A DNA stretch of 9,215 bases from a virus. Its lineage: Duplodnaviria > Heunggongvirae > Uroviricota > Caudoviricetes. How positions within the stretch are numbered: the first letter of the stretch is position 1; each line of letters starts with the position of its first letter. Position numbers and translations under genes: made by a program. A model generated the notes under the pieces. The model worked only from the letters and a program-made list of their open reading frames with translations. It was not told the origin of the DNA and ran no database searches. Of the stretch, positions 108 to 9,215 are shown piece by piece. The DNA lies in the IMG/VR virus record IMGVR_UViG_2703719355_000010; one strand, written 5' to 3'.

Positions 108-197
108 GTCTGCGCCGCGCTGCGTGAGTTGAACAAGCACAGGGATATTGTACGACAGATTACTGATTCTTCCCGCCATGTTGCATCGGAAAAGTGA
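108..197 (+). pseudogene. 3' remnant (29 codons) of a gene interrupted by the IS; its position just upstream of the ren-like gene suggests the tail of a replication (P-like) gene
   Basis: Open frame begins at the IS boundary (VCAALRELNKHRDIVRQITDSSRHVASEK) and stops at TGA 195-197, 15 nt before the next gene's ATG. No start codon of its own. Identity is inferred from position only. Confidence 0.3.
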
Positions 198-212
198 TTG
201 CCGGAGGCGCTT

Positions 213-605
213 ATGGCAAAAGTATTTACACAAGAAGAGCGGGAAGAAGTGAAGGCGCGCATTGTGGAATTCGTGCGCCTGAGCGGACGAGAAACTTTTC
301 GACAACTGGCAGATAAAACGGGTGTCAGTAAGACCGCTATTCGTCGTTTATCTGGTGCGCTTGCGGCCAGTGGTGATGTCTGGCTCTCTGGTTGCGGGGT
401 ATTTCCATCAGAGCAGGCGTATCGCGTATGGCGTAAGACACCGGAGAAGGCTGCTGACCCGACACTGATTCGAAAGTTACCTGACGGAGAAATACGTCGT
501 TACAACAGACGGCAGAACATAATTTGTCGTGAGTGCCGCCAGAGCGAAGTTATGCAGCGTGTGCTGGCGTTCTATCGGGGAAACTTTCAGGAGGTGATGT
601 TGTGA
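213..605 (+). CDS. Ren-like protein, 130 aa (N-terminal HTH-like region, C-terminal ECRQS...RVLA motif resembling lambda Ren)
   Basis: ATG at 213 preceded by GGAGG at 203-207. C-terminal IICRECRQSEVMQRVLAFYRG resembles my recollection of lambda Ren (KECRQSAAMKRVLAVYG). Stop overlaps the start of the next gene. The ORF-track start at 198 is a TTG and less likely. Confidence 0.5.
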   Translation: MAKVFTQEEREEVKARIVEFVRLSGRETFRQLADKTGVSKTAIRRLSGALAASGDVWLSGCGVFPSEQAYRVWRKTPEKAADPTLIRKLPDGEIRRYNRRQNIICRECRQSEVMQRVLAFYRGNFQEVML

Positions 606-1075
606 GTGAGTCGGCTACCATTCTCGACATGTGCTGTGGCAGTCGCATGTTCTGGTTTGATAAGAATGACGAACGGGCGATATTTAGCGATATCAGAAAA
701 GAAGAGCACACATTGTGTGATGGACGACGCCTGATTATCAGTCCTGACCTGATAGCAGATTTTCGAGCATTACCATTTGCAGACGCATCGTTTCCGGTTG
801 TTGTATTCGACCCTCCGCATCTTGAGCGTGTTGGTGATAACGCCTGGATGGGAAAGAAATATGGACGGCTGAATAAAGATACCTGGCGAGATGATTTGCG
901 GCAGGGATTTAAAGAAGCCTTTCGTGTGTTGTGCCCACGCGGCGTTCTGATTTTTAAATGGAATGAAACGCAAATACCTGTTCGCCAGATATTGGTACTG
1001 ACCGACAGAAAACCTGTTATCGGTCAACGAACAGGAAAAAACGATAAAACCCACTGGATTATTTTTATGAAATAG
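602..1075 (+). CDS. Small phage-type DNA N6-adenine methyltransferase, 157 aa
   Basis: GTG at 602 with AGGAGG 8-13 nt upstream, overlapping the previous stop. SAM-binding-like LDMCCGSRMF near the N-terminus and catalytic motif VVFDPPH (DPPY/DPPH class). Size fits the small phage Dam-like family. Preferred over the upstream ATG at 533, which has no RBS and would overlap the Ren-like gene by about 70 nt. Confidence 0.7.
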   Translation: MSESATILDMCCGSRMFWFDKNDERAIFSDIRKEEHTLCDGRRLIISPDLIADFRALPFADASFPVVVFDPPHLERVGDNAWMGKKYGRLNKDTWRDDLRQGFKEAFRVLCPRGVLIFKWNETQIPVRQILVLTDRKPVIGQRTGKNDKTHWIIFMK

Positions 1076-1323
1076 GCATCCAGTGAGTAGGTTCGTAAGG
1101 TTACAGATGCGTATATCTGAATAATTAAATTCAGTTCTGTAAATAAAATTTAATCCTTAACCGGAGGGATTCCTGCACCCTCAGAACATCAGGAGACCGC
1201 CCGAAAGGGCGGTAATGAAAAATGGCTGAATGAACCAAATGGCTACAAAACACGATTACCGGAATTGAAACGGTAGTAGACGATAAATCGTTTGTATGTG
1301 ATGAAATAGTATTCAAAATCGAT

Positions 1324-1689
1324 GTGGTTAAAAACGTACTTACCGCATTTAAAGTCGCGCTGGTATCGCTGGAAGCCGAACCGGTGACATGGCGATATCG
1401 CTACGTGAGAAAAGGCGTTACGAACTTTCAGGAGAAGCCGTGGGTTGGTGACTGGAAATATGTACCGACAAAAGAGGATTGCAACGACAGGCCGAACTAT
1501 GAAATTCAGGCGTTATTCACGGCCCAGCCTGTGCCACTGACACCCGAAGGATTGATTAAAGCGGTGCGCTTCTATGAACAGGTTAAGAGTGAAAATCCGC
1601 CAGTCGAAACCGGAGCATGGAAAGACGCTGTTGACTGGGTGCTCAAAGAGGCTTGTCAGGCTGTAAACATTGGCATCAAAGGAGAGTGA
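1324..1689 (+). CDS. Hypothetical phage protein, 121 aa
   Basis: Uninterrupted ORF on the same strand as its neighbours, ending 1 nt before the next gene's ATG. Start is uncertain (GTG at 1324, no clear RBS). Shares the motif AL-x-SLEA-(D/E)-PV with the N-terminal region of the 1885..3306 protein. Confidence 0.45.
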   Translation: MVKNVLTAFKVALVSLEAEPVTWRYRYVRKGVTNFQEKPWVGDWKYVPTKEDCNDRPNYEIQALFTAQPVPLTPEGLIKAVRFYEQVKSENPPVETGAWKDAVDWVLKEACQAVNIGIKGE

Positions 1690-1690
1690 G

Positions 1691-1882
1691 ATGAACGGAC
1701 AAATCTCAATTGTTCGACCGGGAGCATGTGACGATTGCGAGATACGAATGATTATTCGTCTGGCGATGGGGAAAACAATAACTGCTCTCATTACTCCAGA
1801 AAATCTCGCATTAGCATTAACAGGAAAGTCAGACCTGCCAGTAGAGCTAAAGCTGCGAAATGTTGAGATTAAGGTGAAATAG
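1691..1882 (+). CDS. Hypothetical small protein, 63 aa
   Basis: ATG at 1691 with GGAG 6 nt upstream; stop is 2 nt before the next ATG (tight, operon-like packing). No family recognised. Confidence 0.5.
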   Translation: MNGQISIVRPGACDDCEIRMIIRLAMGKTITALITPENLALALTGKSDLPVELKLRNVEIKVK

Positions 1883-1884
1883 CT

Positions 1885-3306
1885 ATGACCACTATTACCA
1901 AAGAGCGACTGCTGACAATCAAGCAGTGGCGCGAAACATACGGACCTGGTAGCAACGTTGTACTGCCAGCAGAAGAAGCGGAAGAACTGGCACGGATTGC
2001 ACTGGCATCATTGGAAGCAGATCCAGTTAAACGAGTTAACTCAGATCAGATGCACCGAGTCTGCTTAGAAGCTAATCGCTATTTAGATAAATATGACGCG
2101 ATGGCGAAAGAGGTAAATAAGTTGCTTGGACGCATCGCCCCGCCAGCGCCAGTATTTAACGGCGAATACGGTGACGCATATCAGGGCGCTCGTGAAGACC
2201 TGTCCATCTGGAAACGGCGAGCGCTTGAAGCTGATGAGCACGTTCGGCGACTGGAGCAAATCAATGACCACATGGTGAAAGAGGCGCAGGGAGAATCACG
2301 CATGGGCGAGCCTGTAATACGTGAGCCAGCACCGGTAGTGCCTGAAGAAGCAACTCCGGAAAACGTAGAAATGCTCTCTGGCTATGTTTCAACGTACAAA
2401 TTAACCGATAGCGAGCGCGATATTGCTGCCGAAATATGGAACGCCTGCCGCGCCGCCATGCTTCAGTCAGGAAACTTTCGGGAAAACAAGAATTCGTCAA
2501 CCAATAATTTTCGGGAAATCGAGGAAACGTCAACCAACTATCCGGCAATTCCTAGTGAGGTGTTGTCCGCAATCCTGAAGGTTGCCAGGATTCGTGCCGA
2601 TTTCGATGATTTTGACGGTGACAGGCGAGGTATCGGTGATTGTCTGGATGAGGCTGAGCAAGAGCTTATCGTTACCATTAACAAATATGCCAGTCAGTTG
2701 GCAGCAGAACCGATAGCGACTAATGACGTTCGAGAGCAGCAGACAGCCGTTCCGCCAGTTCCGGAAATACAGGCTGATGTCGCGCAAGCAATTGAAAATC
2801 TCAAGCAGAAGCTAGTGGAATGTAATCGCTATAACTACTGCGCAGATGCAGTTAAAGGCGTAGAGGATGCCTGCCGTGCTGTTAGCTATAGCCAAGCCGA
2901 CAATCAACCAGCATCTGGCAACCAGGCTGCCGAATCCAATCGCGGTAATGAGTGGACTGGCAATCCTGATATTGATAACGCCATCATCATGCTCGACCGC
3001 ATAGATACGCTGGAAAATTGCGATGATGACCGTATTGAGGCTGTTAAGGCTGTTTTGCGTAGACTGGCTGGCAACTATCCGGTAACTCCGGATGGTTGGA
3101 TAAGCTGTAGTGAGCGAATGCCGAATACCAAAACAGCCGTTCTTGTTGCCGTGGAGTTTGACAGGAAAGGTGACTGGCGAATGAAATGGGCTACTTACAT
3201 CCCGGGGCATCCTGACGCTAATGATGGGTGGATAATTCCTGGTGCGTCGTGGAAACCGTCACACTGGATGCCGCTACCAGAACCGCCGCAGGAGGTGCGC
3301 CAATGA
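1885..3306 (+). CDS. Large phage protein, 473 aa, with C-terminal DUF551-like domain (Eaa/Ea22-type moron protein)
   Basis: Long ORF with ATG at 1885. C-terminal 70 aa (DGWISCSERMPNTKTAVLV...GWIIPGASWKPSHWMPLPEPP) resemble the DUF551 domain common at the C-terminus of enterobacterial prophage proteins. Contains an internal 33-nt imperfect tandem repeat. Confidence 0.65.
   Translation: MTTITKERLLTIKQWRETYGPGSNVVLPAEEAEELARIALASLEADPVKRVNSDQMHRVCLEANRYLDKYDAMAKEVNKLLGRIAPPAPVFNGEYGDAYQGAREDLSIWKRRALEADEHVRRLEQINDHMVKEAQGESRMGEPVIREPAPVVPEEATPENVEMLSGYVSTYKLTDSERDIAAEIWNACRAAMLQSGNFRENKNSSTNNFREIEETSTNYPAIPSEVLSAILKVARIRADFDDFDGDRRGIGDCLDEAEQELIVTINKYASQLAAEPIATNDVREQQTAVPPVPEIQADVAQAIENLKQKLVECNRYNYCADAVKGVEDACRAVSYSQADNQPASGNQAAESNRGNEWTGNPDIDNAIIMLDRIDTLENCDDDRIEAVKAVLRRLAGNYPVTPDGWISCSERMPNTKTAVLVAVEFDRKGDWRMKWATYIPGHPDANDGWIIPGASWKPSHWMPLPEPPQEVRQ
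2473..2538. repeat. In-frame imperfect tandem duplication (2 x 33 nt) inside the 473-aa gene
   Basis: aactttcgggaaaacaagaattcgtcaaccaat followed by aattttcgggaaatcgaggaaacgtcaaccaac, encoding NFRENKNSSTN / NFREIEETSTN. Confidence 0.6.
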
Positions 3307-3386
3307 TCTGGCCTGAAGCCTTTGCAATTACAGGCGTTGCTATAGCTATTGATTTTTTAGTATATGTTATTTGTCGGTGGGGGTAA
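3303..3386 (+). CDS. Candidate small hydrophobic peptide, 27 aa
   Basis: ATG at 3303 overlaps the stop of the upstream gene (ATGA), suggesting translational coupling. Product MIWPEAFAITGVAIAIDFLVYVICRWG is mostly one hydrophobic helix. Too short for the supplied ORF track. Confidence 0.3.
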   Translation: MIWPEAFAITGVAIAIDFLVYVICRWG

Positions 3387-3421
3387 AAACGTTCGCCGGG
3401 ATTCACACCAAAGGAGGGAAT

Positions 3422-3526
3422 ATGTCGGATGATATTTCACTGGCAATGGAAGGTGCGCTGGCTGTTATTGCTGTTGTGGGCGTTTACTGCCTGGTTGTGT
3501 TTTTGATGGATCGACTAGGGAACTGA
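3422..3526 (+). CDS. Candidate small membrane peptide, 34 aa
   Basis: Strong RBS AAGGAGGG 4 nt upstream of ATG 3422. Product MSDDISLAMEGALAVIAVVGVYCLVVFLMDRLGN has an acidic N-terminus and a single predicted transmembrane helix. Too short for the supplied ORF track. Confidence 0.45.
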   Translation: MSDDISLAMEGALAVIAVVGVYCLVVFLMDRLGN

Positions 3527-3535
3527 ATTCATTAC

Positions 3536-3555
3536 GATATGGGAATTCCCATATC
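3536..3555. promoter_or_regulatory. 20-bp perfect palindrome GATATGGGAATTCCCATATC; candidate operator for a dimeric DNA-binding protein
   Basis: Perfect dyad symmetry read directly from the sequence, about 35 bp upstream of the predicted hok-locus promoter. No U-tract on either strand, so not an intrinsic terminator. Confidence 0.4.
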
Positions 3556-3567
3556 GGGTAAAAACGG

Positions 3568-3596
3568 TTTGCGGTAAAGCGAGAGTTAAGTAGAAT
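3568..3596 (+). promoter_or_regulatory. Candidate promoter of the hok/mok mRNA (-10 TAGAAT at 3591-3596, weak -35 around 3568-3574)
   Basis: A -10 hexamer TAGAAT lies 5 nt before position 3601, where the sequence that base-pairs with the mRNA 3' end begins. Confidence 0.4.
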
Positions 3597-3714
3597 TGCT
3601 GCGGGTGCTTGAGGCTATCTGCCTCGGGCATGCCACCGTAAGGCAGACAGAGAAAAGCCCCAGTTAACATTACGCGTCCGGCAAGACGCTTAACATTAAT
3701 CTGAGGCCATATCT

Positions 3715-3927
3715 ATGACTTGCACATGTAGGTTAGCCTCTTACGTGCCGAAAGGCAAGGAGAAGCAGGCTATGAAGCAGCAAAAGGCGATGTTAATCGC
3801 CCTGATCGTCATCTGTTTAACCGTCATAGTGACGGCACTGGTAACGAGGAAAGACCTCTGCGAGGTACGAATCCGAACCGGTCAGACGGAGGTCGCTGTC
3901 TTCGTAGACTACGAATCTGAGAAGTAA
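3715..3927 (+). CDS. mok: Mok-like reading frame: in-frame N-terminal extension of hok (70 aa)
   Basis: ATG at 3715 in frame with hok, mirroring the mokC/hokC arrangement I recall, where the mok frame governs hok translation. Confidence 0.55.
   Translation: MTCTCRLASYVPKGKEKQAMKQQKAMLIALIVICLTVIVTALVTRKDLCEVRIRTGQTEVAVFVDYESEK
3772..3927 (+). CDS. hok: Hok/Gef-family type I toxin, 51 aa
   Basis: Product MKQQKAMLIALIVICLTVIVTALVTRKDLCEVRIRTGQTEVAVFVDYESEK is near-identical in pattern to HokC/Gef as I recall it (MKQHKAMIVALIVICITAVVAALVTRKDLCEVHIRTGQTEVAVF...). RBS AAGGAG is 9 nt upstream. The predicted mRNA 5' end (3601-3614) pairs with the 3' end (3977-3991), the fold-back arrangement typical of hok mRNAs. 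Confidence 0.85.
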   Translation: MKQQKAMLIALIVICLTVIVTALVTRKDLCEVRIRTGQTEVAVFVDYESEK

Positions 3928-3994
3928 GAGACCAGGCGGGGGAGTAATCTCCCGCCACCTCTGATGTGTCAGGCATCCTCAACGCACCCGCACT

Positions 3995-4020
3995 AAACCC
4001 GCTTCGGCGGGTTTTTTGTT
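3995..4020 (+). terminator. Intrinsic terminator at the end of the hok transcript
   Basis: Hairpin ACCCGC-TTCG-GCGGGT followed by TTTTTTGTT. Confidence 0.75.
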
Positions 4021-4202
4021 GCGTGCTGAATGCGCAGGGTGAAAAATAACCATATATTTGATTATATACACAACAAAAAATAAAAGTCATTGTACCTGCA
4101 CATTAAATAATCAAATATACAGCGTGAAATAAATATTTTTCAGATTAATATTTTTGTCTCTATGTGGATATAACCGTTTGTACTTATAAACTCGGAGGCA
4201 TC

Positions 4203-4415
4203 GTGGAAAAAATAAAGAAACTATTTAGTTGCAAATACGCAGTCATACGTCGTGATGACCTGTCAGTTATAGTCGAAATGGATTACTTCCCTGAAACCCC
4301 AAAATCAATGATGTATCGTAATGGTCGAAAGGCAATTTTTTTACCGATGAGGGTAAGTGACATTATGGGAAATGATAAACTGCTGGATGAATTGCGAGTC
4401 AGAGCATCCTGTTAG
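4203..4415 (+). CDS. Hypothetical protein, 70 aa, encoded in an AT-rich island (moron-like)
   Basis: GTG at 4203 with GGAGG 4 nt upstream. Preceded by about 180 bp of very AT-rich sequence directly after the hok terminator. No family recognised; start uncertain (track ORF begins at GTG 4164). Confidence 0.4.
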   Translation: MEKIKKLFSCKYAVIRRDDLSVIVEMDYFPETPKSMMYRNGRKAIFLPMRVSDIMGNDKLLDELRVRASC

Positions 4416-4486
4416 TATTGGCATTAATTCTGGTATACTACATAACGGGCTGAACACCCATTCTACTGCGCCAGCGGAGAACTACG

Positions 4487-5086
4487 ATGGCGCATATACA
4501 ACTGGTCAAACAAACCTCTTCCGGATTACTTCTCCCGGCGACACCGGAGAGTTGCGATTTTTTGCATCAAATCAAAATAGGCGAGTGGATACACGCAGAC
4601 TTTAAGCGTGTGCGTAACTACGCATTCCACAAGCGTTTTTTCAAACTCCTGCAACTGGGATTCGATTACTGGACTCCGGTCGGTGGGGCGATCACGCCTC
4701 GCGAACGAGAACTGCTGTCTGGTTTCGTTGATTACCTGTGCGAATCAGTTGGTCGGGAACACACGCCAGCCCTGAGTGATGCCGCAGAGCAATATCTGAA
4801 TACAGTTGCGACACGCAGAACCCGGGATACGGCATTGTTAAAGTCGTTTGAGGCTTTTCGCGAGTGGGTAACCATTCAGGCTGGATTTTACACCGAACAT
4901 TTTTATCCGGACGGTAGCCATGGGCGTCGGGCGAAATCCATCGCTTTTGCGAATATGGACGAAACCGAGTTTCAGCAGGTTTATAAATCTGTTCTGAATG
5001 TGCTGTGGAACTGGATTCTGTTCCGTAAATTTTCCTCTCCGGAACAAGTCGAAAATGTGGCCGCGCAGCTGCTGGAGTTTGCGTAA
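4487..5086 (+). CDS. Lambdoid nin-region protein, 199 aa (DUF1367-like)
   Basis: ATG at 4487; stop overlaps the next start (TAATG). Size and position immediately upstream of a YbcO-like gene and Q fit the DUF1367 family; assignment is by recollection and gene context. Confidence 0.6.
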   Translation: MAHIQLVKQTSSGLLLPATPESCDFLHQIKIGEWIHADFKRVRNYAFHKRFFKLLQLGFDYWTPVGGAITPRERELLSGFVDYLCESVGREHTPALSDAAEQYLNTVATRRTRDTALLKSFEAFREWVTIQAGFYTEHFYPDGSHGRRAKSIAFANMDETEFQQVYKSVLNVLWNWILFRKFSSPEQVENVAAQLLEFA

Positions 5087-5376
5087 TGGTGGATTTACGT
5101 AAAGCGGCGCGGGGGCAGATGTGCACCGTCAGAATTCCTGGCTACTGCAATCACGATCCGGAAACGTCTGTGCTGGCGCATTACCGACTGGCGGGAACGT
5201 GCGGAACAGCGATAAAGCCACACGATATGCAGGCAGCGATTGCCTGTAGCTCGTGCCATGATTTAATCGACGGGCGGGTAAAAACCGGCGATTACACCAA
5301 AGAAGAATTACGCCTGATGCATGCAGAAGGTGTTTTTCGCACACAAGAAATCTGGAGAAAGGAGGGATATTTATGA
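5086..5376 (+). CDS. YbcO-like protein, 96 aa (DUF1364, putative metal-binding nuclease)
   Basis: Product MVDLRKAARGQMCTVRIPGYCNHDPETSVLAHYRL...IACSSCHDLIDGR closely follows the pattern of DLP12 YbcO as I recall it (LRKAARG...C.VRIPG.CN..PETSVLAH.RL...IACS.CHD.ID), including the conserved Cys/His positions. Overlapping start and stop with both neighbours. Confidence 0.75.
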   Translation: MVDLRKAARGQMCTVRIPGYCNHDPETSVLAHYRLAGTCGTAIKPHDMQAAIACSSCHDLIDGRVKTGDYTKEELRLMHAEGVFRTQEIWRKEGYL

Positions 5377-5927
5377 TTTACCCAACGAATACAGGAAAAA
5401 GCGGAGAACACCTTCGTCTCACCACGCTGGAAAGTGTCTGGATTCAGGGAAAACTACGTATGTGGGGGCGCTGGTCGTATATTGGCGGCGGTAAGACGGG
5501 AAATATGTTTAACCAGTTGCTGACCTCTAAAAAGCTAACAAAAACGGCAATTAATGAGGCGCTCCGGAGGATGAAAAAAGCAGGTCTGGACAAACCTGAA
5601 CTTGAGGCTTTTTTGCGGGATATGATCAACGGCAAGCAAAAAAGCTGGCTGGTGCATTGTACTGATGCAGAGGCGTTATGCATTGATCGGGTGATTAGTG
5701 AAGTGCTGGCAGAACACCCAGGATTGATTTGTATCCTCCGGCAAAGATATGAAGGGCGGGGGATGAGTAAGCGCAAAATGGCTGAATTGCTAAATGATGC
5801 ACACCCTGAGTGGTGTTTTCGGACGTGCTGCAGTCGGGTAGATGTATGGCTAAATCTTGCTGAATATATGCTCTATCTGCCGATGCGTGATGCATTCTCT
5901 TCCGGGTATTTAAAAACTGTCTGTTGA
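5373..5927 (+). CDS. Putative late-gene antiterminator Q (non-lambda Q family), 184 aa
   Basis: ATG at 5373 with GGAGGG 6 nt upstream. Sits in the Q position: downstream of nin-type genes and immediately upstream of a strong promoter plus short-transcript terminator. An N-terminal W-G-x-W motif resembles what I recall of Q82/QuuD-type proteins. Family not verified. Confidence 0.55.
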   Translation: MIYPTNTGKSGEHLRLTTLESVWIQGKLRMWGRWSYIGGGKTGNMFNQLLTSKKLTKTAINEALRRMKKAGLDKPELEAFLRDMINGKQKSWLVHCTDAEALCIDRVISEVLAEHPGLICILRQRYEGRGMSKRKMAELLNDAHPEWCFRTCCSRVDVWLNLAEYMLYLPMRDAFSSGYLKTVC

Positions 5928-5953
5928 CTCAATCTGTTATCCGGGGCTATATT
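5924..5953 (+). promoter_or_regulatory. Candidate late promoter (PR'-like): -35 TTGACT at 5924-5929, 18-nt spacer, -10 TATATT at 5948-5953
   Basis: Near-consensus sigma-70 hexamers overlapping the Q stop codon, followed by a hairpin at 5961-5978 (CGCCAG-CAAAAT-CTGGCG) in the initially transcribed region, as expected around a Q-utilisation/pause site. Confidence 0.5.
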
Positions 5954-6015
5954 CCTCACGCGCCAGCAAAATCTGGCGTCGGGATTAGGAACCCCGGATA
6001 GAGACCGCGACAGAC

Positions 6016-6040
6016 ACACGCCGCGAGCGTGTTTTTTATT
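6016..6040 (+). terminator. tR'-like intrinsic terminator downstream of the late promoter
   Basis: Hairpin ACACGC-CGCGA-GCGTGT followed by TTTTTATT, about 60-80 nt downstream of the predicted start site, analogous to the lambda PR'-tR' short transcript. Confidence 0.55.
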
Positions 6041-6200
6041 GTCGTATGCACGCGCACATCTGAATTATGGTGGGGCGTATGGGGGAGCTGAAAAGCTCGC
6101 CGGTTGGTTTCCCGGTAGTTCCTAACCCTGTACGTCTCACCACCCGATGATTAGGAACCTGACGGTGGTGATGGTTTAGAAACCACCAGAGGGCGTCATT

Positions 6201-6782
6201 ATGACAACTCAAATTTCTGTTGAAACTCTCTCCCCGATCACCCATAACCAGATTCCTGTTATTACCACCGAACTTTTGGCGCAGTTGTACGGTGCTGGAG
6301 TTAAGAACATTCAAAATAACTACGCCAGAAATGCTGAGCGCTTTATTGAAGGAAAGCATTTTTTCAAAGTGGCTGGCGATGCCCTGAAAAATTTGCGGGT
6401 AGCTTTAAACTACTCACAAAATTTGCAACTATCTTTAAGAGGGTTACAAATTTCCCCGAAAGCCCGCTCCCTCATCCTCTGGACAGAACGCGGAGCAGCC
6501 CGTCATGCCAAAATGCTGGAAACCGATCAGGCGTGGGATGTGTTCGAAAAGCTGGAAGACTGCTATTTCAGACAAAAGGATCCGTCAGCGCCAGTTTCAT
6601 GCCAGAAAAGTTACGACACGCGAGTTCTCTGTTATCAGAGAGGCGGTGTCACTGTTTCCACAATTCAGTTACGGGATGATGATATTGTTATTTCCCTTGA
6701 GTCATGGCTGGAACTGGCGAGAGCCAATGGTTGGTTTGTTGTTCGCAGAGATAAACTGGTGGAAAGGTTGATGCAGCTTTAA
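6201..6782 (+). CDS. ORF6N-domain protein (KilA-N-related, antirepressor-like DNA-binding domain), 193 aa
   Basis: N-terminal LLAQLYGAGVKNIQNNYARNAERFIEGKHFFKV matches the ORF6N signature I recall (LAELYG...N.AVKRN.ERFPEDFMF). ATG at 6201 with a GAGGG RBS. Confidence 0.65.
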   Translation: MTTQISVETLSPITHNQIPVITTELLAQLYGAGVKNIQNNYARNAERFIEGKHFFKVAGDALKNLRVALNYSQNLQLSLRGLQISPKARSLILWTERGAARHAKMLETDQAWDVFEKLEDCYFRQKDPSAPVSCQKSYDTRVLCYQRGGVTVSTIQLRDDDIVISLESWLELARANGWFVVRRDKLVERLMQL

Positions 6783-6879
6783 AAAAGTTCTTGCATTTTT
6801 GCACATAAACTGCTTCAATTCCTGTATGCTTCGCAAAGCTGTATCGCGAGGCGAAACGCAAGTTTTTTTCGCACAAGGA

Positions 6880-6902
6880 AGCCACCGGAAGGTGGTTTTT
6901 TT
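6880..6902 (+). terminator. Intrinsic terminator after the ORF6N gene
   Basis: Hairpin CCACC-GGAA-GGTGG followed by seven T residues. Confidence 0.65.
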
Positions 6903-7025
6903 GTGTCCGTAATATACAGCAGCGCAATAAATTCGCTGGTGGTTATTAATACCGTTCTTTCAGCTTGCTGGCTTTTTCGACAAGAGTTATTGGTATGTCA
7001 CGTTAACCGGAAAGGGTAAAAAGAC

Positions 7026-7223
7026 ATGCTGAAACAGCAGGATATGACAGAAACCGCCAGAGTTGTGTTTGATGAATTAAGCGTTACCGAACCGGCGACA
7101 GTCGGGGAGATTGCGCAGAATACTTACCTTTCACGCGAACGCTGCCAGTTAATACTGACCCAGCTGGTTATGGCGGGTCTGGCAGACTATCAGTGCGGTT
7201 GTTACAGACGCATTCAGTCCTGA
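7026..7223 (+). CDS. Small winged-helix regulatory protein, 65 aa (PapI/FaeA-like)
   Basis: TVGEIAQNTYLSRERCQLILTQLVMAGLA resembles the PapI/FaeA pattern I recall (TAEIAEAL.VT.YQAR.YLL.LEKAG). Start could be ATG 7026 or the internal ATG at 7041. Confidence 0.45.
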   Translation: MLKQQDMTETARVVFDELSVTEPATVGEIAQNTYLSRERCQLILTQLVMAGLADYQCGCYRRIQS

Positions 7224-7256
7224 AGGCTTTTTATTTGTGGTAAATGGGCGGCTGGT

Positions 7257-7265
7257 GGGGGGGGG
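7257..7265. repeat. Homopolymeric G9 tract in the intergenic region upstream of the AraC-family gene
   Basis: Nine consecutive G residues read directly, about 30 bp upstream of a candidate promoter (TTGATG at 7294-7299, TATAAT at 7319-7324). Confidence 0.9.
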
Positions 7266-7359
7266 CGGCACCTGTCAGTCCTTTGCTTATGTGTTGATGA
7301 TAATTTACCTTTTGGGGCTATAATTGAGCTAACCAATTGCTAATGAAAGTAAAATTATA

Positions 7360-8073
7360 ATGGCTGTTGTCTGTTCAGTTATCATGGTTTGCTCCCCAAT
7401 TAATATTTTTCTTGAAAAGGATACGTTGTCACTTAAGCCAGGCTCAGTCGTTCTGGCCACCAAATGCATCAGGGAGCTTTTCCTTATGCATTATGGCAAA
7501 GTTAAAATTGTCGATATAAGCGAATCCGTCGTAAGTCAATATCTGGAAAGTCAGCATAAGCTGACGAGGACTCGTCTGACTGACATTCCGCTTTACCTGT
7601 TGCTGGAACCCAACAATCCTGCGTTGGCTGCGGCTTTAATTACCAGCCAGGGATTTTCCGGAGAGGTCACGGATATGTTTCTTATGATGGCCTGCCTGTC
7701 TCTGTTTGAAACAGATGAACGGATGTCATTGTTTTTAAGTGGATGTTTATCCAGCATAAGTGCCAAAGTCAGGGCGATAATTCAGACAGATATATCAGCA
7801 AGCTGGACGCTTGGTGCGATTGCTCTACAGTTGCATATGAGTGAGAGTTTGTTAAAGACAAAACTGAAAAATGAAGGGGGCATGTTCAGTCGCTTGTTGC
7901 TGGAAGAGCGGATGCGTGTTGCTGTAAATATGTTATGTTCCCGACATGGATATGGACAGGCTGTAGCAGAAAAATGCGGTTATTCAAGCAGGTCCTACTT
8001 TATTTCTGTATTTCACCGCTATTATGGCTTCCCGCCAGACAGATATGTATCCAGGCAAGGGCTTGATTATTGA
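7360..8073 (+). CDS. AraC/XylS-family transcriptional regulator, 237 aa (prophage-encoded; PatE/Psr-like class)
   Basis: The C-terminal 100 aa carry the tandem HTH signature of the AraC family (...SRSYFISVFHRYYGFPPDRY). Start codon is uncertain: ATG 7360, 7387 and 7486 are all in frame and none has a strong RBS. Confidence 0.8.
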   Translation: MAVVCSVIMVCSPINIFLEKDTLSLKPGSVVLATKCIRELFLMHYGKVKIVDISESVVSQYLESQHKLTRTRLTDIPLYLLLEPNNPALAAALITSQGFSGEVTDMFLMMACLSLFETDERMSLFLSGCLSSISAKVRAIIQTDISASWTLGAIALQLHMSESLLKTKLKNEGGMFSRLLLEERMRVAVNMLCSRHGYGQAVAEKCGYSSRSYFISVFHRYYGFPPDRYVSRQGLDY

Positions 8074-8101
8074 TTTTCATCTGATTATTATTTTTTGGCT
8101 C

Positions 8102-8177
8102 GGCCCTTTAGCTCAGTGGTGAGAGCGAGCGACTCATAATCGCCAGGTCGCTGGTTCAAATCCAGCAAGGGCCACCA
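8102..8177 (+). tRNA. tRNA with anticodon CAU; sequence pattern of tRNA-Ile2 (lysidine type, ileX-like) rather than tRNA-Met
   Basis: Cloverleaf folded by hand: acceptor GGCCCTT/AAGGGCC, D-stem GCTC/GAGC, anticodon loop CTCATAA, T-loop TTCAAAT, encoded CCA. Close to my recollection of E. coli ileX. Confidence 0.8.
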
Positions 8178-8178
8178 A

Positions 8179-8255
8179 CCGCCACTAGCTCATCAGGAAA
8201 GAGCGTCAACCCTTTAAGTTGAGTGTGCGAGGTTCGAGTCCCCGGTGGCGGTCCA
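8179..8255 (+). tRNA. Atypical tRNA or tRNA-like gene; anticodon loop CCTTTAA (nominal anticodon UUU, Lys) with C instead of U at position 33 and an unusual D-loop
   Basis: 7-bp acceptor stem CCGCCAC/GTGGCGG, T-loop TTCGAGT, encoded CCA, 5-bp anticodon stem TCAAC/GTTGA. Deviations: 5' C, D-loop ATCAGGAAA, C33, one A-C mismatch in the T-stem. May be a degenerate or specialised tRNA. Confidence 0.5.
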
Positions 8256-8257
8256 GT

Positions 8258-8333
<76 letters not shown>

Positions 8334-8336
8334 TAT

Positions 8337-8411
<75 letters not shown>

Positions 8412-8417
8412 GTTAGA

Positions 8418-8463
8418 GTCTTTCAGTCTGCGATGATGGGAAATCCCGGAGTGACTGAAAGAC
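8418..8463 (+). repeat. Perfect 11-bp inverted repeat (GTCTTTCAGTC / GACTGAAAGAC) with a 24-nt loop, immediately after the tRNA array
   Basis: Read directly; no U-tract follows, so not a canonical terminator. Possible processing, structural or binding site. Confidence 0.5.
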
Positions 8464-8470
8464 GTTTAGG

Positions 8471-8543
8471 TTATGAATGATCGCTTTTTTTTGCAAAATT
8501 GCTGTGCAGAAATACTAACCTTCGGGCAGGCGATCATTCATAA
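8471..8543 (+). repeat. Perfect 14-bp inverted repeat (TTATGAATGATCGC / GCGATCATTCATAA) separated by 45 nt
   Basis: Read directly; the loop contains a T8 run. Could form a long stem-loop in RNA or be a protein-recognition or recombination site. Confidence 0.5.
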
Positions 8544-8618
8544 GCACTCTGCTTTTATTCCGATTAACTGTGGGTGGTTTGTTGGATAGAGTGCTTTCCT
8601 GACTGTAGATCCAATTTC

Positions 8619-8644
8619 GCCCGCTTTTGCGGGCTTTTCTTTTC
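8619..8644 (+). terminator. Intrinsic terminator upstream of the holin gene
   Basis: Hairpin GCCCGC-TTTT-GCGGGC followed by TTTTCTTTTC. Confidence 0.7.
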
Positions 8645-8703
8645 AAATCCCTTTCATCTCTCAGTGTAAAACTACGCCATCCGTTATTTGCGGAGGTGAG
8701 GCT

Positions 8704-8919
8704 ATGAAATCCATGGACAAAATTTCAACGGGCATTGCCTACGGCACCTCCGCAGGCAGTGCTGGCTACTGGTTTTTACAGTGGCTTGATCAAGTCAGTC
8801 CGTCACAGTGGGCTGCGATTGGTGTACTGGGGAGTCTGATTCTGGGCTTCCTGACTTATCTGACAAATCTGTACTTCAAAATCAGAGAAGACAAGCGTAA
8901 GGCTGCACGGGGAGAGTAA
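8704..8919 (+). CDS. S: Class II holin / pinholin of the phage 21 S type (S21-like), 71 aa, with dual-start motif
   Basis: Product [71 protein letters not shown] matches my recollection of S21 almost residue for residue, including the Met1/Met4 dual start (MKSM). GGAGG RBS 7 nt upstream. Confidence 0.85.
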
Positions 8920-8923
8920 TTCA

Positions 8924-9148
8924 ATGACTCAAAACTATGAAGTGATTGTGAAAGGGATCCGCAATTTTGAGAATAAAGTTACGGTAACTTTAGCGTTACG
9001 GGACAAAAAACGCTTTGACGGTGAAATTTTTGACCTGGACATCTCGCTGGACCGTGTTGAAGGTGCCGCGCTGGAGTTTTATGAGGCAGCAGCCAGAAGG
9101 AGCATCAGTGAACCGCCCCGGGTTTCCTGGAGAGTGTTTTATCTGTGA
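8924..9148 (+). pseudogene. Gene of unknown function truncated by the right-hand IS; the first 61 codons are native and the last 13 (EPPRVSWRVFYL plus stop) come from the IS end
   Basis: ATG 8924 with GGAGAG RBS. The reading frame crosses the IS boundary at 9109 and terminates inside the IS terminal repeat. The native N-terminus (MTQNYEVIVKGIRNFENKVTVTLALRDKKRF...) is not a recognisable endolysin. Confidence 0.45.
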
Positions 9149-9215
9149 ACTCAGGCTGCCAGATCATCGTTTCCGATGGAAGCATAATAAGCTTTTTCTG
9201 CTTCTGCCGGAGGAG
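9109..9215 (-). mobile_element. Right-end fragment of a second copy of the same IS3-family element in inverted orientation; the element continues to the right of the window
   Basis: Exact reverse complement of 1..107; begins at 9109 with TGAACCGCCCCGGGTTTCCTGGAGA. Confidence 0.7.
9151..9215 (-). CDS. IS3-family transposase C-terminal fragment, partial (mirror of 1..65)
   Basis: Same frame as the left copy read on the minus strand; stop codon at 9151-9153. Confidence 0.5.
   Translation of the reverse strand, partial: PPAEAEKAYYASIGNDDLAA

Follow-up and report, generated by a model that had tools for sequence, protein, structure and literature searches.

Do the two short open reading frames (ORFs) that precede a hok toxin locus in this viral DNA encode proteins and, if so, of what kind? 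We studied them in a 9,215-nucleotide (nt) stretch of a Caudoviricetes record (IMG/VR IMGVR_UViG_2703719355_000010), which we call the window and to which all positions refer. ORF1 and ORF2 lie on the plus strand between a gene ending in a DUF551 domain and hok. The original prediction, made from the sequence alone, described both as unannotated ORFs for hydrophobic single-helix peptides. It suggested that the peptides could be toxins, membrane-protein modulators or superinfection-exclusion factors, and it proposed ribosome profiling and tblastn searches as checks. Annotation systematically overlooks small membrane peptides, and those encoded by phages often govern lysis timing, exclusion or host physiology. 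We conclude that ORF1 and ORF2 are probably both genuine genes for accessory, single-helix inner-membrane peptides, with ORF1 arranged for translational coupling to the gene before it and ORF2 linked to hok. ORFs as short as these are expected by chance, so the case for both rests on their conservation across other genomes.

ORF1 and its predicted coupling to the preceding gene

ORF1 (3303–3386; ATG at 3303, TAA at 3384–3386) encodes the peptide MIWPEAFAITGVAIAIDFLVYVICRWG and belongs to a family with the pattern M-x-WPEAF...CRWG. Its start codon shares the sequence ATGA with the TGA stop codon (3304–3306) of a 473-amino-acid (aa) ORF at 1885–3306 on the plus strand. Both the length of 27 codons and this overlap were correct as originally described. 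The original prediction did not include the Shine–Dalgarno sequence AGGAGGT (3290–3296, plus strand), which is located within the final codons (Q-E-V) of the upstream gene, 6 nt from the ORF1 start codon.

Conservation of ORF1 at the amino-acid level is evident from tblastn searches, which found 27-aa homologues with 52–63% identity in 92 phage records. Another 181 records are plasmids of E. coli, Salmonella and Klebsiella. These are mostly non-mobilizable replicons of 93–110 kb, and presumably represent phage-plasmids. The hosts are E. coli, Shigella and Salmonella, in which the family is carried by lambdoid prophages, among them Shiga toxin (Stx) phages, by rV5-like virulent phages and by phage-plasmids. 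A pattern scan of the GTDB species representatives found it in almost no species other than E. coli and Shigella flexneri. A 431-base-pair (bp) contig of Xanthomonas pisi DSM 18956 (NZ_JPLE01000323.1) is also identical to a 933W-type sequence, with an ORF1 homologue and, after it, the hok promoter. This contig is most likely a contamination of that assembly with E. coli phage DNA.

The arrangement of ORF1 relative to its upstream gene is conserved as well. The homologue begins on the stop codon of the previous gene and has 27 codons in every locus that we inspected, namely those of Stx2a_WGPS2, 933W, BP-4795, the virulent Vequintavirinae phage Av-05 and plasmid p779-3. A larger set of contexts comprises the tblastn matches and those of a degenerate DNA pattern scan of IMG/VR, the latter limited to M-T variants. 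Among the 83 unique contexts with an upstream ORF of at least 60 codons, ORF1 has exactly 27 codons in 76. All 76 of these have a Shine–Dalgarno-like motif (a 4-mer) at most 20 nt 5′ of the start codon. The family consensus is MTWPEAFTTVGIAMAVALVVYSICRWG, which follows the scheme of M-x-WPEAF, about 16 hydrophobic residues and then CRWG.

The genes that precede ORF1 end in at least four unrelated C-terminal modules. The observed ends are ...PLPEPPQEV[NR]Q (DUF551), ...NGLISVEDVLR, ...LKNIEQKVNQ (933W L0139, a different protein) and ...AMLKKKGMNQ (Av-05). Given that the upstream modules differ while the overlap stays, ORF1 appears to be an independent module that keeps its coupling anatomy. This anatomy consists of the features by which translational coupling is recognized: a start/stop overlap, an internal Shine–Dalgarno sequence and conservation of both across homologues. 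Ribosomes that end at the overlapping TGA would restart at the ATG, aided by the GGAGG in the last codons of the upstream gene.

Substitutions among ORF1 homologues follow the reading frame. The entropies of the three codon positions are 0.41, 0.28 and 0.79, i.e., the third position is the most variable. Synonymous changes account for 38 of 94, compared with an expectation of 27% (P = 0.004), while the other two sense frames give 20–24%.

ORF1 has no annotation in RefSeq, and few GenBank records (e.g., ASL59204.1 and ETD58580.1) list it as a “hypothetical protein”. Judged by sequence, it represents a new, uncurated phage small-protein family of a known kind. The family is missing from RefSeq annotation, Pfam, NCBIfam and PHROGs, and adding it would mend hundreds of annotations.

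ORF2, its published translation and its linkage to hok

ORF2 (3422–3526; ATG at 3422, TGA at 3524–3526) encodes the 34-aa peptide MSDDISLAMEGALAVIAVVGVYCLVVFLMDRLGN. Its strong Shine–Dalgarno sequence, noted in the original prediction, is AAGGAGG at 3411–3417 on the plus strand, 4 nt from the ATG. The predicted hydrophobic, single-helix character of the two peptides agrees with our calculations: the best 18-residue Kyte–Doolittle windows score 2.33 for ORF1 and 2.89 for ORF2, and the AlphaFold2 model of ORF2 is one helix covering residues 3–33 (predicted local distance difference test score 90.6).

The claim that both ORFs are unannotated applies to ORF1 in RefSeq, apart from the few GenBank entries, but not to ORF2. 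The NCBI annotation pipeline PGAP lists ORF2 as the “hypothetical protein” WP_001278450.1 in RefSeq, both in E. coli NZ_CP148401.1 and in O157:H7 genomes. An exact cluster look-up places the identical peptide on roughly 1,000 contigs and also in UniRef. Moreover, a ribosome profiling (Ribo-seq) study of E. coli O157:H7 Sakai reported a novel translated gene, XECs145, that contains the entire ORF2 sequence (Huecker et al. 2017, PMC5597208). ORF2 is therefore already known as a hypothetical, translated small protein.

In LB medium, XECs145 had 79.1 RPKM (reads per kilobase per million mapped reads) of RNA and 346.1 RPKM of footprints, corresponding to a ribosome coverage value of 4.35 and a coverage of 0.99 (PMC5597208). 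The mean LB ribosome coverage value of novel genes with annotated homologues was 2.04 (PMC5597208). In brain heart infusion (BHI) medium, the numbers were 121.3 RPKM of RNA, 150.1 RPKM of footprints, a ribosome coverage value of 1.14 and a coverage of 0.84; under combined cold and osmotic stress in BHI, they were 73.3 RPKM, 1.1 RPKM, 0.01 and 0.37, respectively (PMC5597208). The encoded protein was predicted to be an inner-membrane protein with one transmembrane helix (PMC5597208). Published ribosome profiling, one of the checks proposed originally, is thus positive for ORF2, and amino-acid conservation, another of them, is found for both ORFs. The study sets the start codon of XECs145 20 codons further 5′, which gives a protein of 54 aa instead of 34 aa. 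We favor the 34-aa start because the Shine–Dalgarno sequence at 3411–3417, the RefSeq gene model and the type B homologues described below agree on it.

Other published sources contributed little. Neither peptide is present in the supplements of an EDL933 Ribo-seq study (PMC5331693), and full-text literature searches with the ORF2 peptide and with “WPEAF” returned nothing relevant. The small ORFs go unmentioned in the hokW paper (PMC8621323) and in a preprint on the Pas small RNA.

We aligned ORF2 with weakly similar phage relatives and used this alignment to collect copies of ORF2 from IMG/VR, phage and E. coli loci. The first two IMG/VR scans gave near-identical copies among their best 80 matches, and a reordered ORF2 alignment then gave diversity. 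The copies fall into two types. Type A, to which ORF2 of the window belongs, encodes 34 aa from an ATG start codon and is followed by a palindrome. Type B encodes 29 aa from a GTG start codon (MLVLKCALAIAAVMAIYCLAVVLMDRLSD), has no palindrome and occurs in phages Tritos, Evi, mEp460 and HannyBb. The two types have in common the motif ...A-L-A......Y-C-L-x-V-x-L-M-D-R-L-x-x-stop, which they encode with many synonymous differences. Although their N-termini differ, the reading frame, a start codon and a Shine–Dalgarno sequence are retained. Four loci, those of the L157 class, have an altered C-terminus, ...FLMDRM*.

Synonymous changes in ORF2 are in excess within types. Among the segregating changes, 20 of 34 are synonymous, where 26% would be expected (P = 7e-5), and controls in the other frames match the expected values. 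The same type B peptide is encoded by at least eight DNA sequences. We rely on these within-type counts because the ratio of nonsynonymous to synonymous differences (pN/pS) between types A and B does not separate the frames (0.46 in frame 0 and 0.37 in frame 1).

ORF2 is consistently associated with a hok locus. It lies directly 5′ of the hok mRNA 5′ motif in 251 of 253 copies, and the other two copies end at a contig edge. The distance from the end of ORF2 to this motif is 46 nt in type B and about 80 nt in type A. The associated locus is of the hokW/hokD type. In the window, mok occupies 3715–3927 on the plus strand, with hok nested inside it at 3772–3927, and this ORF matches PF01848 (Hok/Gef) with 79.8 bits. 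The Rfam model RF01794 (“sok”) matches the plus strand at 3603–3777 (110.6 bits, E = 5.9e-26). We read this match as the 5′ part, or leader, of the hok mRNA with the sok region, so the transcript would start at about 3603. From the sequence and the start of the Rfam match, the candidate hok promoter is TTGCGG and TAGAAT separated by 16 nt (3569–3596, plus strand), for which a consensus promoter scan made no call. ORF1, ORF2 and the palindrome are all located 5′ of the hok transcription unit.

Type B copies have candidate promoter hexamers of the form TTGAA[GT]-17-CATATT about 36–66 nt before the GTG (L012, L013, L014 and L298). The hexamers are conserved while the 17-nt spacer diverges, and they occur in three different upstream contexts. 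This pattern is as would be expected of a working sigma-70 promoter. A variant of the −35 hexamer, TCTCAT, occurs in 15 loci. For type A, the promoter scan called no plus-strand promoter of its own.

The gap between ORF1 and hok

The region between ORF1 and hok is a hot spot of mosaicism, and its content takes at least five forms. A type A ORF2 is present at 161 loci, a type B ORF2 at 8, a filler that starts with a canonical intrinsic terminator at 11 and one other filler at a single locus, and the gap has no content, as in phage 933W, at 48 loci. The terminator filler is about 160 nt long and opens with AAAAACCCCGGATTGATGGTCCGGGGTTTTTG (L189, L252 and L204 classes, IMG/VR). Where this filler is present, no further gene follows ORF1 in its operon, and hok is protected from read-through.

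An 11-bp direct repeat, GGGTAAAAACG, flanks the ORF2 segment. The left copy (3381–3391, plus strand) covers the last codons and stop codon of ORF1 and forms the left junction of the segment. The right copy (3556–3566, plus strand) runs on into the −35 region of hok. The repeat is exact and at the two originally described positions; in a DNA search these were its only occurrences, and none is expected in shuffled sequences. In 933W, as in 47 further loci, TAAAAACGGTTTGCGG and the hok promoter directly follow the stop codon of the ORF1 homologue. The window has this 933W junction sequence at both edges of a 175-bp segment that holds ORF2 and the palindrome, and 933W lacks the segment. The segment may have arisen by insertion with duplication, or may have been lost in other loci by deletion between the repeats.

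The original prediction also noted a palindrome after ORF2. The palindrome exists, but a repeat search found a perfect 22-mer (3535–3556) rather than one of 20 bp. As RNA, it would form a 9-bp stem with an AAUU loop (minimum free energy −20.9 kcal/mol, z = −3.9) that no U tract follows. We considered and rejected two assignments for it: an intrinsic terminator, for which the U tract is missing, and a CRP-type site, for which no TGTGA half-sites were seen by eye. Its copies exhibit no compensatory variation, and it is absent with type B. At most, the palindrome shields the hok promoter against read-through. The type B relatives of ORF2 have neither the repeat nor the palindrome. We interpret both elements as junction features of a mosaic indel, and not as components of a mobile element or of a conserved regulatory site.

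A related rearrangement is seen in E. coli 2013C-3277 (NZ_CP027331.1), in which hok lies next to a frameshifted paa adhesin gene, and only the last codons of ORF2 and the palindrome remain. This arrangement is a recombination scar and shows that hok can persist without ORF2.

Likely roles, alternative explanations and genomic setting

How might the two peptides function? Each would insert into the inner membrane as one hydrophobic alpha-helix, and both probably serve as non-toxic accessory membrane peptides. ORF1 and ORF2 would be transcribed with the early right operon on induction, and ORF2 would additionally be expressed from some promoter activity in lysogens. ORF1, always the last cistron behind a mosaic Ea/DUF551-type gene or an unrelated one, would act independently of this variable upstream partner. 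ORF2 moves as one unit with the hok/sok locus just downstream, and most plausibly acts on Hok or in concert with it. Because ORF2 and hok move together while the upstream context varies, we favor a role for ORF2 that is connected to Hok, e.g., tuning Hok-assisted lysis. Our confidence in this role is low, however, because many hok loci lack ORF2.

In an extended and rather doubtful form of this proposal, ORF2 is a third protein component of prophage hok/sok loci, and the ORF1 family has a conserved membrane target of its own. In that case, ORF2 made in lysogens would tune the insertion or oligomerization of Hok, and would provide immunity or timing for Hok-assisted lysis upon induction. HokW assists phage release in the prophage setting of enterohaemorrhagic E. 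coli (EHEC) (Takada et al. 2021, PMC8621323). The linkage of ORF2 to hok in all 251 testable copies (of 253) provides a testable hypothesis on hok/sok biology in EHEC prophages. Should both peptides prove to lack a phenotype, they are simply two further hypothetical small proteins.

Neither ORF fits a known family in Pfam, NCBIfam, PADLOC or PHROGs v4, in which the best matches had E values of 0.01–0.7 or scored under the curated cut-offs. Nonetheless, both ORFs resemble elements of known kinds. KdpF, AcrZ and MgtS are bacterial membrane proteins of less than 50 aa that modulate larger membrane proteins. ORF1 and ORF2 are similar to them in length, in their predicted single transmembrane helix and in their frequent omission from annotation. 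They differ in being phage-borne rather than chromosomal and in belonging to no library family; the match of ORF1 to the KdpF model is sub-threshold (E = 0.024, 14.7 bits versus a cut-off of 26.85). Phage morons are small extra transcription units that some of a set of related phages carry, and others lack, between two conserved genes. Likewise, related loci differ in whether ORF2 lies between ORF1 and hok, ORF2 is expressed in lysogens, and type B additionally has the conserved TTGAA[GT]-17-CATATT hexamers upstream. Unlike a moron, type A ORF2 lacks a recognizable promoter of its own, and its hairpin, with no U tract, is not a canonical terminator. By analogy, then, ORF2 resembles a phage moron, and ORF1 resembles the bacterial single-helix membrane modulators.

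The proximity to hok raises the question of whether ORF1 or ORF2 is itself a type I toxin, i.e., a membrane-depolarizing peptide like Hok, Ldr, Ibs or TisB that is held in check by an antisense RNA. Hok/Gef proteins, including HokW of the hokW-sokW locus of Stx phage 933W/Sp5, are likewise small, single-helix inner-membrane peptides in the same prophage neighborhood (PMC8621323), and a bona fide type I toxin is encoded next to the two ORFs. Two weak minus-strand promoter-like sites (3446–3419 and 3387–3359, 9 of 12 matches) could conceivably drive an antisense RNA, but such sites are within the range of chance (4 found, 1.3 ± 1.2 expected). The site that overlaps ORF2 has no type B counterpart, as judged by reading the sequence only, with no scan run there. 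Moreover, neither ORF matches PF01848 or any other Pfam model even at E ≤ 1, and over 3000–4300 only the sok/hok match (3603–3777) reaches the Rfam gathering score, with no antitoxin RNA over 3300–3600. Unlike hok, the two ORFs lack a mok-like leader ORF and fold-back mRNA elements, and no antisense RNA was detected over them. ORF2 is also located 5′ of the hok promoter, outside of the hok transcript. ORF2 has an exposed, strong Shine–Dalgarno sequence and, unlike silenced type I toxin mRNAs, is efficiently translated during growth (ribosome coverage value of 4.35 in healthy cultures in LB); O157 genomes carry a median of three copies of it. Because ORF2 is efficiently translated in normal lysogens and we found no antisense-RNA architecture, a toxin is unlikely. 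We regard it as improbable, too, that the ORFs make no functional product and that the DNA is kept for upstream regulation of hok or as a “linker” for lambdoid recombination. The stop codon of ORF1 is about 12 nt from the hok −35 box in 933W-type loci, the junction GGAGGTGAATCAATGA recurs after different upstream genes, as a linker would, and ORF2 is always beside the hok promoter. Yet 48 of 278 ORF1 loci have no hok downstream, with ORF1 found beside int/xis and in the virulent phage Av-05. ORF1 also retains its length, start and stop at 52–63% amino-acid identity. For ORF2, the excess of synonymous changes, the frame, start codon and Shine–Dalgarno sequence kept by both types, and the ribosome footprints over 99% of XECs145 argue for a protein product.

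Two further explanations seem to us highly unlikely. The exact 11-bp direct repeats, together with 933W-type loci that resemble empty sites, might suggest that the ORF2 segment, here taken as 164 bp, inserted as a miniature mobile element and duplicated 11 bp of its target site. However, the internal palindrome is the sole inverted repeat over 3200–3720, and there are no terminal inverted repeats. Type A was always seen directly 5′ of hok where the flank reaches, in no other context, and it sits between ORF1 and hok wherever ORF1 was traced. The at least four other, unrelated fillers of the gap are typical of phage mosaicism rather than of transposition. As to ORF1, it might be a C-terminal membrane anchor that is attached by a programmed −1 frameshift, given that its frame is open for 25 codons 5′ of the ATG in the window (ORF 3228–3386). 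By eye, though, there is no slippery heptamer in CAG GAG GTG CGC CAA TGA, and the conserved ATG and Shine–Dalgarno sequence at a fixed spacing indicate independent initiation. It is just as hard to accept that the real gene is an antisense 62-aa ORF (3406–3218). A particular antisense frame stays open in 73 of the 76 variants and has a similar synonymous fraction, but only 37 of 72 contexts contain an antisense ORF across ORF1, and these ORFs vary between 45 and 150 codons without conserved ends.

Several observations weigh against our preferred explanation, i.e., two genuine genes for accessory membrane peptides. The antisense frame that shares its third codon positions with ORF1 has a like excess of synonymous changes (33 synonymous and 54 non-synonymous); therefore, the assignment of ORF1 to its strand rests on the conserved start, Shine–Dalgarno sequence, length and stop, and not on the selection statistics. 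Among near-identical copies of ORF1, 11 of about 168 (L009 and 10 other loci) have a TGG-to-TGA change that yields a product of 25 aa ending in ...VICR*. These variants lose the last two residues, so the C-terminus is not strictly required. ORF1 could not appear in the Ribo-seq list because the study used a cut-off of at least 30 aa (PMC5597208), and the XECs145 reads derive from a multi-copy sequence. In addition, the diversity of ORF2 is narrow: a HMMER search of 1.84 billion cluster representatives gave seven matches, all 79–100% identical. Its linkage to hok may thus reflect no more than co-inheritance over a distance of 46–80 nt. ORF2 is also absent from many hok loci of the same lineage, from which it follows that hok/sok works without it.

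As to the genomic setting, positions 108–9215 of the window are 99.9% identical to E. coli Z1323CEC0019 (NZ_CP148401.1). Within an E. coli lambdoid prophage, the window represents the rightward early (nin-type) region. From left to right, the genes in NZ_CP148401.1 encode DUF1627, DUF977, a methyltransferase, two hypothetical proteins and DUF551 pieces, then the 34-aa hypothetical protein (ORF2), Hok/Gef, DUF1367, DUF1364, DUF1133, ORF6N and a helix-turn-helix protein, and finally four tRNAs, a class II holin and an IS3-family element. The 473-aa gene upstream of ORF1 was classified as a mosaic of the Ea/DUF551 type from its ORF call and its Pfam and PHROG matches. It consists of phrog_60, phrog_14306 and phrog_924/7704 modules, with DUF551 (PF04448, residues 404–469) at its end. 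This ORF is unbroken in the window; the RefSeq annotation of NZ_CP148401.1 has two partial DUF551 pseudogene pieces and a 62-aa DUF551 coding sequence.

Downstream of hok, weak, sub-threshold Rfam matches to rsmX (27.3 bits) and isrK (24.1 bits) occur at 3930–4017. They cover the 3′ end of hok and a terminator hairpin at 3995–4014, and probably mirror the terminator alone. According to positions transferred from NZ_CP148401.1, a cluster of four tRNA genes (Ile, Lys, Thr and Gly) at about 8100–8410 precedes the class II holin gene, and an IS3-family (IS1203) element interrupts a DUF1327 gene at the right end of the window (9150–9215).

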